The notes below the pieces were generated by a model, which was not told the DNA's origin, did no database searches, and was given only the letters and a program-made list of their open reading frames with translations. From positions 1 to 40,101 of IMG/VR virus record IMGVR_UViG_3300045988_140317: a stretch of DNA of 40,101 bases; one strand, written 5' to 3'. Both the position numbers and the translations under genes were made by a program. The stretch comes from a virus. This document shows, one piece after another, positions 32,824-33,177 of the stretch (position 1 is the stretch's first letter; every line of letters starts with the position of its first letter).

Positions 32824-32852
32824 AAATAAAAAAAGCCCGAAAAAATCGGGCT
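32824..32852 (-). terminator. Minus-direction intrinsic terminator at the left edge of the island
   Basis: AGCCCGA / TCGGGCT stem followed by a T run on the minus strand. Confidence 0.7.
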
Positions 32853-32884
32853 CAAAAAATTTTTAAAAAAATTATAAAAAAGTA

Positions 32885-32913
32885 TTGACAAAATAAAATC
32901 CTTGGATTATAAT
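32885..32913 (+). promoter_or_regulatory. P1: consensus sigma-A promoter TTGACA-17-TATAAT
   Basis: Read directly: -35 at 32885-32890 and -10 at 32908-32913. Confidence 0.8.
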
Positions 32914-32920
32914 AGACTTG

Positions 32921-32940
32921 TAAGGTTGAGATAGACCTTA
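32921..32940. promoter_or_regulatory. Palindromic operator candidate TAAGGT-N8-ACCTTA at about +1 of P1
   Basis: Perfect 6-bp arms. The identical element occurs downstream of P2. Confidence 0.55.
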
Positions 32941-32981
32941 TAAAATCCCCCTCAAAGTAAGGGTTGAAAGGGGGTGAGAAT

Positions 32982-33098
32982 GTGAAAAGCCGCAAGGGCA
33001 AAAGAAAAAGCCTTGACTTTTCAAAAGTAATCAAGCTAGTGACTGCAATCGCTAGATTGATAAAAATACTTATTGAAATAATCAAGGCTCTTTCTTAA
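32982..33098 (+). CDS. 38-aa basic/amphipathic peptide (type I toxin-like candidate)
   Basis: GTG start 7 nt after the GGGGG of SD AAGGGGGTGA. Sequence MKSRKGKRKSLDFSKVIKLVTAIARLIKILIEIIKALS. The SD can pair with the upstream CCCCCT (32947-32952). Confidence 0.45.
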   Translation: MKSRKGKRKSLDFSKVIKLVTAIARLIKILIEIIKALS

Positions 33099-33106
33099 CA
33101 TTCAAT

Positions 33107-33142
33107 GGCAAGTAGATGATTAACATCTATTTGCCTTCCCTT
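33107..33142 (+). terminator. 12-bp hairpin with a weak T tract after the 38-aa ORF (leaky terminator)
   Basis: GGCAAGTAGATG / CATCTATTTGCC followed by TTCCCTT. Confidence 0.45.
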
Positions 33143-33148
33143 ACAATT

Positions 33149-33177
33149 ATTATAGCAAAGAAGGGGTCAAAATGCAA
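33149..33177 (-). promoter_or_regulatory. Antisense promoter TTGCAT-17-(TGc)TATAAT facing the 38-aa ORF
   Basis: Read on the minus strand. The -35 overlaps the RHH start codon. Transcription would run antisense through 32982-33098 to the terminator at 32824-32852. Confidence 0.5.

Follow-up and report, generated by a model that had tools for sequence, protein, structure and literature searches.

A putative antisense-controlled small-peptide gene at the head of a repressor-controlled accessory operon in a streptococcal prophage

Toxin-antitoxin (TA) systems of type I consist of a small hydrophobic protein and an antisense RNA that represses it (PMC2887945, PMC6563280), and a prophage toxin of this type can be carried on a polycistronic mRNA, as is the case for yonT/SR6 (PMC5848175). 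Loci of this kind adjoin CRISPR arrays in C. difficile (PMC5961336). Small repressors of plasmid copy control, among them the CopB repressor of R1, are also described (PMC5717011). Here we analyse a cassette in a 40,101-nucleotide stretch of viral DNA (IMG/VR record IMGVR_UViG_3300045988_140317; hereafter the window) whose source is a Streptococcus anginosus prophage, the region being 98.7% identical to phage Javan64 in a DNA similarity search. The cassette comprises a promoter (P1), a 38-codon open reading frame (ORF), a gene for a small repressor of the ribbon-helix-helix (RHH) type and an opposing antisense promoter (P-as). An initial annotation, made from the sequence of the window, had described it as a type I TA-like module, of which the conserved peptide gene, the occluded Shine-Dalgarno (SD) sequence, the antisense promoter and the terminator have stood up to analysis, whereas no toxin family could be assigned and the transcript is shared with a repressor. 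We put a probability of roughly 0.45 on the reading that the cassette is an antisense-RNA-controlled small-peptide unit of the type I TA kind, forming the first cistron of a repressor-controlled operon.

The small open reading frame and the fold of its transcript

Copies of the cassette were collected in four ways, namely by DNA similarity, by locus searches based on the RHH gene, by two DNA-pattern scans and from annotated phage records. This yielded 14 distinct versions of the small ORF, from phages of S. anginosus, S. equinus and S. suis, from related viral contigs and from one metagenome contig. All 14 are intact, encode 36-50 residues and have their start codon 4-9 nt past a long SD, and the ORF is present upstream of every genuine regulator copy with enough upstream sequence (14/14). 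The pattern scan of metagenomes returned mostly chance matches (the regulator is encoded in only 15 of 137), and a tblastn search of the peptide against phages was defeated by low complexity.

The GTG-initiated 38-residue ORF on which the initial annotation was built is present with the translation it had given (Table 1), and amino-acid-level conservation among copies, on which its proposal depended, was found. In addition to the intactness of the 14 variants, the proportion of nonsynonymous differences is lower than that of synonymous differences (pN < pS) in 28/28 pairs from eight lineages, with dN/dS mostly 0.13-0.5 and dS often saturated. Differences at codon positions 1, 2 and 3 stand at 534:358:594, making position 2 the most and position 3 the least conserved, and the ORF frame contains no stops in any of the eight lineages while the other sense frames contain 2-7. 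Judged by this pattern of substitution, the small peptide gene is real and conserved as a protein. A 77-aa ORF on the antisense strand (32852-33085) was rejected as a coding sequence, stops being found in 4/8 lineages examined.

The alignment retains a polybasic N-terminus followed by a helix with a polar stripe at i, i+7, i+10, i+14 and i+17, and the motifs L-x-T-A-I-A and V-L-E-(I/L)-(I/V)-K are kept. Across the variants Kyte-Doolittle means for the best 19-residue stretch lie at 1.6-2.8 and hydrophobic moments go up to 0.69, with clean transmembrane segments in some variants (L016 and phage phi30c). Hydrophobicity and hydrophobic moment are in the range of membrane-active peptides of the TisB and ShoB type. 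The basic N-terminus and TisB-like amphipathic helix seen at first reading are present, but the composition of the peptide partly mirrors a complementarity between its codons (see below). The peptide brought up no known family: a phmmer search of 1.84 billion representative proteins returned only the near-identical Javan64 copy, with the same outcome in a protein search with a 44-aa extended ORF.

The composition also resembles that of precursors of secreted signalling peptides of the SHP/PrgQ/ComS type, in which the mature peptide would derive from the C-terminal end; a Glu is kept inside the C-terminal hydrophobic stretch in most lineages, and prgQ of pCF10 likewise has a promoter converging on it and an RNA antisense to it. 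We find a signalling role scarcely credible, since no receptor gene of the RRNPP family (Rgg, PrgX) is adjacent or was recognised among the scanned ORFs of the window, the partner gene encodes either a 56-aa RHH protein or an unrelated 68-aa protein, and the cassette peptides are longer (36-50 aa) with C-termini that are not conserved.

The leader of the P1 transcript is predicted to keep this ORF closed to ribosomes. The in silico fold of the 5' untranslated region (UTR) consists of a 5'-terminal hairpin and a CCCCC:GGGGG helix over the SD (dG -23.9, z = -2.8), and the pairing between CCCCCT and the SD that had been proposed is borne out by the near-maximal pairing probability between the C-run and the G-run of the SD (Table 1). 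The pairing probability of the SD is 0.99 for the small ORF, whereas 26 other genes of the window that have an SD average 0.52 and only one of them reaches 0.9, and it is at least 0.97 in all lineages. The paired sequences occur in compensatory variants (AGGGGG:CCCCCT, AAAGGAGG:CCTCCTTT, AAGGGG:CCCCTT, GAAAGGA:TCCTTTC and GGGAGGTGG:CCAC..CTCCC). SD and anti-SD change together between lineages, and the modelled fold is of the kind found in toxin mRNAs, predicted to block translation. These values come from per-sequence folds, used in place of a MAFFT and RNAalifold consensus, which under-reports both the SD pairing and the ORF hairpin described below because the diverged sequences misalign. The 5'-terminal hairpin occupies the same place in 6/7 lineages with differing stem sequences (7 pairs, 2 of them with compensatory changes). 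A lambda-N-like arginine-rich antiterminator binding this hairpin was considered and set aside: the 5' hairpins of P1 and of the second promoter P2 are identical in the window only, because of a recent duplication.

Beyond the SD, nucleotides 33002-33096 form one long imperfect hairpin that spans the ORF. An ORF-wide hairpin is predicted in 14/14 lineages, and in all of them it is far more stable than synonymous-codon permutations of the same ORF (z between -2.2 and -6.4). The hairpin pairs codon i with codon N-i, such that a Lys/Arg-rich first half (AAR and AGR codons) complements a Leu/Phe/Ile-rich second half. The ORF could on this evidence be a by-product of a structured noncoding RNA, in which the long hairpin is cut by RNase III, stabilises the transcript or forms a kissing contact with the antisense RNA; with NAN codons lying opposite NTN codons, the open frame would reflect complementarity within an A/T-rich palindrome, and one antisense frame is nearly open too (0-1 stops). 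We regard this as quite unlikely. The sole frame that is open in all lineages is the sense frame behind the SD, with start codons at canonical spacing, the conservation by codon position and the excess of synonymous change are those of a coding sequence, and a 9-11-nt SD with a dedicated anti-SD would be purposeless on a noncoding RNA. From these patterns we argue that protein-coding and RNA-hairpin constraints act together on the ORF.

Antisense transcription and repression in the cassette

The minus-strand promoter of the initial annotation, with its TG extension, was recovered (Table 1), as was the overlap of its -35 element with the RHH start codon, the -35 being the reverse complement of ATGCAA at 33172-33177. 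A promoter scan did not list P-as because TTGCAT matches the -35 consensus at only 3/6 positions. P-as is kept at the same place, as TTGCAT-17/18-TGnTATAAT or TATACT, in 8/8 lineages that were found without reference to the promoter and whose intergenic DNA has otherwise diverged; 3' of it all eight have CAAGGG and then a hairpin with wholly different stems (on the plus strand, CCCTTG or CCTTG directly 3' of the hairpin). Two regulator families with no detectable similarity, the RHH proteins and a 68-73-aa protein in Javan565 and phi30c, both start with ATGCAAGAA, which points to a constraint at the DNA level imposed by P-as.

An antisense RNA of about 300 nt had been predicted to end at the only terminator in its path. 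That terminator is present, but a weaker terminator-like site (32972-32947 on the minus strand, where the SD hairpin's complement precedes AUUUUAU) may end the RNA earlier; with two candidate terminators the predicted length is either ~195 nt (end near 32945) or ~310-317 nt (to 32826). The 317-nt form is strongly structured (z = -8.3). An equivalent minus-strand terminator is found just left of the first promoter in six further lineages (L002, L005, L011, L016, L018 and L017), and it adjoins P1 whether HNH or cos is beyond. On the strength of the conserved promoter and terminator signals, an antisense RNA complementary to the small-ORF mRNA is predicted to be encoded at the locus. The suggestion that the same RNA controls the regulator needs revision: the RNA starts opposite the anti-SD of the RHH gene but overlaps neither the SD nor the coding sequence of that gene, so that any effect on the regulator would be indirect.

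P-as might alternatively be the late promoter of the phage, its ~300-nt RNA and terminator forming a leader of the lambda PR'-tR' type that is antiterminated into HNH, terS and terL. The Alt-like activator gene ends at a bidirectional terminator (35923-35941), the cassette terminator is no more than 48 nt from the HNH start in the window (22 nt in L011 and L018), and HNH lacks a recognisable SD or consensus promoter. We judge this very unlikely, however, because the terminator stays with P1 and not with the late genes (~380 bp including cos intervene in L002 and L005), P-as occurs in the tandem units of phi30c with no terminator after the inner copy, no antiterminator was identified, and a late promoter under an Alt-type activator may well deviate from the consensus. 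As observations in their own right, the HNH start lies 48 nt past the strong terminator (window 32785-32832) with no recognisable SD or consensus promoter, and the Alt-like gene upstream of HNH ends at its own terminator.

P1 is present as originally given (TTGACA-17-TATAAT; Table 1) and drives a transcript on which the small ORF precedes the RHH gene. The RHH protein has sub-threshold, weak matches to Pfam DUF6364 (23.2 bits, cut-off 27.3), NikA-like (21.8 bits, cut-off 27) and ParD, a weak match to a PHROG of transcriptional repressors (E 0.0017) and a best PDB match at E 0.76. An invariant, AT-hook-like K-R-x-R-G-R-P (window 33172-33220) stands at the N-terminus of the RHH proteins, ahead of the ribbon strand. 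The SD of the regulator gene is itself predicted to be paired in 8/8 lineages. A role for the RHH protein as a type II antitoxin was set aside, given that it has no C-terminal extension and that an unrelated protein takes its place in Javan565.

Within a lineage, P1 and P2 share a palindrome in the promoter spacer (AATCC-NN-GGATT, TTCCAAGTGGAA, ACATAGTGCATGCACTATGT or GACATCATTTT..AAAATGATGTC). There are at least four RHH types among the RHH-bearing cassettes, each with its own spacer sequence or palindrome in P1, the spacer being repeated in P2 where P2 is present, and the regulator type co-varies with the spacer palindrome even when the small-ORF block between them is identical. One identical block of UTR, ORF and P-as combines with four RHH variants, each having its own P1 spacer, and one pair of RHH and operator combines with two different ORF blocks. 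These combinations suggest that the repressor recognises the spacer, and they show that the ORF and antisense block assorts independently, as a unit. By co-variation, the RHH protein is predicted to bind the palindromic operator in its own promoter.

The second control unit lies downstream of the RHH gene, where P2 (33362-33390) transcribes a 190-nt noncoding leader. A second extended -10 promoter, P-as2, faces this leader and is kept in the seven lineages that have it; L014 has neither the leader nor P-as2. The second antisense RNA (33509-33416) matches the Rfam family RF00242, ctRNA_pT181, over its full length (1-94) with 44.9 bits and E 5.5e-5, a score below the gathering threshold of 56 bits. 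Its recognition loop (CAAACUUUGGUCGGGGAG) is identical to the ctRNA_pT181 consensus, and its hairpins are followed by a U7 run. Weaker ctRNA_pT181 scores were obtained for the satellite JavanS208 (L003, 34.6 bits) and for L011 (33.9 bits), and lineages with a type B loop gave no match to this family. The P2 leader contains an intrinsic terminator at 33517-33545. In minimum-free-energy folding the free leader adopts an antiterminator, and masking the stretch to which the countertranscript would pair shifts the fold to the terminator, in the window, L011, L016 and L017 (4/7 lineages); in L002, L006 and L018 the terminator forms in both states. This logic of antiterminator and terminator is that of pT181 and pIP501 attenuation. 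The P2 unit is a pT181- or pMV158-type attenuator on a phage, and its antisense RNA is very probably regulatory. Since P-as2 controls a noncoding leader and its RNA matches the pT181 countertranscript family, the antisense RNAs of this region are at least in part regulatory devices; this match of a sibling unit with the same architecture also makes it credible that antisense transcription has a function in the region.

The P2 unit bears directly on the strongest alternative to the type I TA reading, a plasmid-style countertranscript circuit without a toxin, which we regard as possible and yet doubtful. In such a circuit the P-as RNA and the structured leader would set the levels of the RHH protein and the island genes through transcriptional interference between convergent promoters, RNA-RNA pairing and processing, and the small ORF would be a leader cistron or encode a harmless small membrane protein. 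The neighbouring P2/P-as2 unit, with its noncoding leader, pT181-type countertranscript and alternative-fold attenuator, is such a device. The RHH autorepressor is co-transcribed with downstream genes and has operators in both promoters, as for CopG (PMC5717011), the small ORF and the regulator are on one mRNA, and the SD of the RHH gene is sequestered by a CCCTT opposite the 5' end of the P-as RNA, pairing with which could free it. Parallels are found in CopG with RNAII (pMV158), in CopB, CopA and the tap leader peptide (R1) and in CopR with RNAIII (pIP501). A mere leader peptide, on the other hand, should not keep an amphipathic pattern, coding-type substitutions and pN < pS over 14 lineages. 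The stop of the ORF is ~70 nt before the regulator start, a distance that makes translational coupling between the two unlikely, and the SD, which is close to the maximum length and more tightly occluded than any other in the phage, suggests that translation matters and is dangerous.

Under the type I TA reading, we infer that both RNAs would be made, that the peptide would be translated and harmful, and that the antisense RNA would neutralise it. The consensus P1 would fire strongly only while little or no RHH repressor is present, for instance right after entry of the DNA into a cell. Its transcript would begin with the protective 5' hairpin, and with the strong SD locked by the upstream anti-SD and the ORF folded into the long hairpin, little peptide would be made from the intact mRNA. 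P-as, an extended -10 promoter of constitutive type, would give a fully complementary RNA of ~200-310 nt ending at the terminator of the island boundary, and its pairing, probably with cleavage of the double strand, would silence what is left of the peptide mRNA; a derepressed P1, transcribing towards P-as, would suppress it. The peptide itself, through its polybasic N-terminus and amphipathic or hydrophobic helix, would act on the membrane. Without repressor P1 would dominate P-as and a burst of expression would follow; as RHH accumulates, P1 and P2 would close and the antisense RNAs would prevail. A burst followed by shutdown should be common to the type I TA reading and to a purely regulatory circuit.

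Several observations weigh against a type I TA unit. The peptide matches no toxin or other family in Pfam, NCBIfam, PHROGs and PADLOC, and the P-as RNA has no credible antitoxin match in Rfam, where only noise-level matches were found. In several lineages including that of the window the helix carries 4-5 charges, making it amphipathic in place of a clean transmembrane segment, and the order of a basic N-terminus and a hydrophobic C-terminus is the reverse of that in most Gram-positive type I toxins. The pairing of codon i with codon N-i means that this basic-then-hydrophobic composition is in part driven by the RNA. The toxin-side promoter is a perfect consensus and on paper stronger than the antisense promoter, whereas TA loci usually show the inverse ratio; to restore it, one has to assume that RHH represses P1. 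Between the small ORF and the regulator there is neither a U-tract terminator nor a conserved promoter, so that the two are on one P1 transcript, an arrangement atypical of type I TA loci. The cassette was not found on plasmids (a blastn search of 72,556 plasmids with the cassette and the P2 leader gave zero matches), nor as a stand-alone chromosomal locus.

The accessory island and related loci

All lytic genes of the prophage are on the minus strand (SSB, methylase, DnaD-/DnaC-like, Alt-like activator, HNH, terS, terL, portal and the genes beyond). A plus-strand island, from 32885 to ~35920, separates the Alt-like gene from HNH, and of this island the small-ORF cassette forms the left end; it is limited by a minus-strand terminator (32853-32833) on the left and by the bidirectional terminator on the right. 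It is a counter-oriented accessory-gene island of Streptococcus cos-type prophages, in which the cassette heads a repressor-controlled operon. The coordinates of the main features are collected in Table 1.

Table 1. Features of the cassette, of the second control unit and of the surrounding prophage, in window coordinates
Feature	Position	Strand	Remark
Intrinsic terminator, stem 32853-32833, 8-bp GC-rich stem, T5 loop, TTTTTATTTT tail	32823-32853	-	predicted 3' end of antisense RNA; left limit of island
P1, TTGACA-17-TATAAT, A/T-rich upstream region	32885-32913	+	12/12 match to sigma-A consensus
Palindrome AATCC-TT-GGATT in P1 spacer and -10	32897-32908	+	predicted RHH operator
5'-terminal hairpin of P1 transcript (GUAAGGUU/GACCUUAU)	32920-32941	+	from RNA folding
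Anti-SD CCCCCT (32947-32952) with long SD AAGGGGGTGA (32968-32977)	32947-32977	+	pairing probability 0.98-1.0
Small ORF, GTG start, 38 aa, MKSRKGKRKSLDFSKVIKLVTAIARLIKILIEIIKALS	32982-33098	+	polybasic N-terminus and amphipathic helix
Intercistronic hairpin, no U-tract	33107-33135	+	on minus strand, 5' hairpin of antisense RNA; 8/8 lineages, unrelated stems
Anti-SD CCCTT(A) with RHH SD AAGGGG	33137-33166	+	anti-SD opposite first nucleotides of predicted P-as RNA
P-as, TTGCAT-17-TGcTATAAT, extended -10	33177-33149	-	predicted start near 33142
RHH-type repressor, 56 aa, N-terminal RGRP motif	33172-33342	+	predicted autorepressor of P1 and P2
P2, second copy of P1 with same operator	33362-33390	+	within 58-bp exact repeat of P1 region including 5' hairpin
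Countertranscript, ~80 nt, ending at hairpin 2 (33430-33471) then T7/U7 run	33416-33533, including P-as2	-	fold z = -4.5
P-as2, TTGACT-17-TGgTATACT	33533-33505	-	kept in the 7 lineages having this leader
Attenuator: intrinsic terminator GUACCUG..CAGGUAC and U-run, then TACCTC anti-SD and SD of first cargo gene	33517-33580	+	
HNH	32479-32784	-	
Alt-like activator	35945-36379	-	
CI-like repressor	8660-9412	+	
Integrase	10185-11345	+	

Cargo proteins of the island from three phages gave no usable match in sequence searches of Pfam, PHROGs, PADLOC and PDB. The product of the first cargo gene (145 aa, ATG at 33581) has no Pfam family, no PDB relative and only homologues annotated as hypothetical, and its AlphaFold model has a mean pLDDT of 58.5. 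Just before the bidirectional terminator, a 52-aa ORF (35766-35924, plus strand) with its own promoter-like site encodes two hydrophobic segments (MWNWLILFLLLFISLFYFSNIIIKIVIGFILFVLAIAIICLIIDFHNDPNKN); the satellite JavanS208 has a similar ORF at the equivalent position (L003 695-841). The product may be a further small protein of membrane or toxin-like type.

Other arrangements of the same parts were seen. Phage phi30c and relatives (L017 811-1226) carry two tandem units, each with an operator-bearing promoter, a small ORF, an antisense promoter and a different regulator. The 8.7-kb satellites JavanS208 and JavanS209 (L003, MK448361/2) encode an Alt-like homologue at 40% identity, and they also have an RHH gene, a P2 with the AATCC..GGATT operator and a ctRNA-type hairpin; they may share or intercept the control circuit of a helper phage. 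Matches to the P2 region in 150-kb Enterococcus Schiekvirus genomes were discarded as generic strong early promoters (TTGACAAAA with an A-rich upstream region) and not copies of the cassette.

Further observations concern the rest of the prophage. The interval between HNH and terS (32270-32478) has a cos-like look, with a G7 run and TTAATAG-type repeats. The portal and terminase genes have a tRNA gene between them (29831-29900, minus strand; Rfam, 36.3 bits). Among the early genes, a 190-aa integrase-like ORF (36751-37323, minus strand; PHROG 216, E 4e-71), distinct from the full-length integrase, may be a truncated or second recombinase. In phi30c, a Bacilli-1 RNA was recognised downstream of the island (L017 3978-4041, minus strand; Rfam RF02931), its 68.7 bits exceeding the gathering score.

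Fragments of the cassette also occur in two CRISPR arrays, in both cases at the trailer end, bounded by repeats and without P1. In S. massiliensis (L015, NZ_KB904431, 2756-3320) a type II-A repeat is followed by ~495 bp, an inverted repeat copy and mutY, the ~495 bp containing the SD, a frameshifted ORF, P-as, the RHH gene, the countertranscript and its terminator. The second case is a viral contig (L168, IMGVR_UViG_2811995247_000001, 10917-11642), where four type I-E-like repeats, 421 bp and two degenerate repeats follow one another, and the 421 bp hold an intact ORF, P-as, the RHH gene and the first bases of the next unit. These embedded fragments may be assembly artefacts.

Repressor copies are documented to block incoming elements in the case of CopG (PMC5717011) as well as in those of Aca and AcrIIA1 (PMC9410906; bioRxiv 10.1101/787200). 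A speculative and unlikely extension is that the cassette is a plasmid-derived 'establishment switch', built from the consensus promoter with its operator, the peptide gene guarded by antisense RNA, the RHH repressor and the pT181-type attenuator, which on entry would give a burst of peptide and hypervariable anti-defence cargo, and that streptococcal hosts captured fragments of it into CRISPR arrays against incoming phage. The array-borne peptide gene, antisense promoter and repressor would then be transcribed with the precursor CRISPR RNA and would shut down the island of the incoming phage, the fragments acting as an 'anti-anti-defence' or array-stabilising module in type II-A and type I-E arrays.

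Comparison with described systems

New here are the ORF-wide hairpin, the reassortment of the ORF and antisense block, the second antisense RNA matching pT181 and the fragments in CRISPR arrays. If the peptide is toxic, it would found a type I toxin family not described before and confined to prophages of streptococci (S. anginosus, S. suis, S. equinus and relatives), with unusual wiring: the operon's own repressor would have the toxin gene as its leader cistron, the toxin coding sequence would be a single long hairpin, and the antitoxin promoter would be fused to the start codon of the repressor. Whether or not it is toxic, a phage here runs an accessory-gene island with plasmid-type copy-control hardware (an RHH autorepressor and a pT181-like countertranscript attenuator), and the modules of the cassette reassort freely, with pieces recurring in CRISPR arrays of two types.

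The type I TA systems with which we compared the cassette, whose antisense RNAs are convergent with the toxin mRNA or overlap it fully, are Ibs/Sib and TisB/IstR-1 of enterobacteria, Fst/RNAII (par) of enterococci, and BsrG/SR4 and YonT/SR6 of the Bacillus prophage SPbeta. The cassette resembles them in its small hydrophobic or amphipathic peptide, its occluded SD, its cis-encoded antisense promoter and its prophage location. It differs in having no sequence or profile similarity to known toxin or antitoxin families (including Fst/Ldr, Hok/Sok, TisB, Ibs, ShoB and TxpA/BsrG), in the N-terminal placement of the polybasic end, in the folding of the entire ORF into one hairpin and in the perfect-consensus promoter on the toxin side. 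Moreover, the peptide gene is co-transcribed with the autorepressor of its own promoter, whereas type I toxin genes are usually, though not universally, discrete transcription units.

With anti-CRISPR (Acr) operons controlled by Aca proteins the cassette shares a very strong promoter with a palindromic operator, a small autorepressor and hypervariable small cargo of no recognised kind; in sequence searches no cargo protein matched a known Acr or a solved structure. Unlike Aca, its repressor is of the RHH type and is encoded upstream of the cargo, and unlike acr loci, for which antisense RNAs and a leader peptide gene have not been described, the cassette has the signals for both.

The likeness to the copy control of rolling-circle plasmids (pMV158 CopG/RNAII; pT181) lies in the small RHH autorepressor, which is co-transcribed with the genes it controls and has operators in the promoter (PMC5717011). 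As in pT181, a short countertranscript is produced from an extended -10 promoter in a leader, its loop is the family consensus, and a terminator with alternative folds lies upstream of the regulated gene. Unlike in pT181 and pMV158, the regulated genes encode small proteins without a recognised function and no recognisable Rep, the system is borne by a phage with no blastn match on plasmids, and there is an additional upstream unit with a peptide ORF and a second, long antisense RNA. In the CopA/CopT-tap-CopB system of R1, an antisense RNA likewise targets a leader containing a small translated ORF, and a separate small repressor acts at the promoter. The cassette departs from R1 in that its ORF shows conservation at the protein level, with a distance to the next start that is too great for coupling, and in that the antisense RNA covers the whole ORF.

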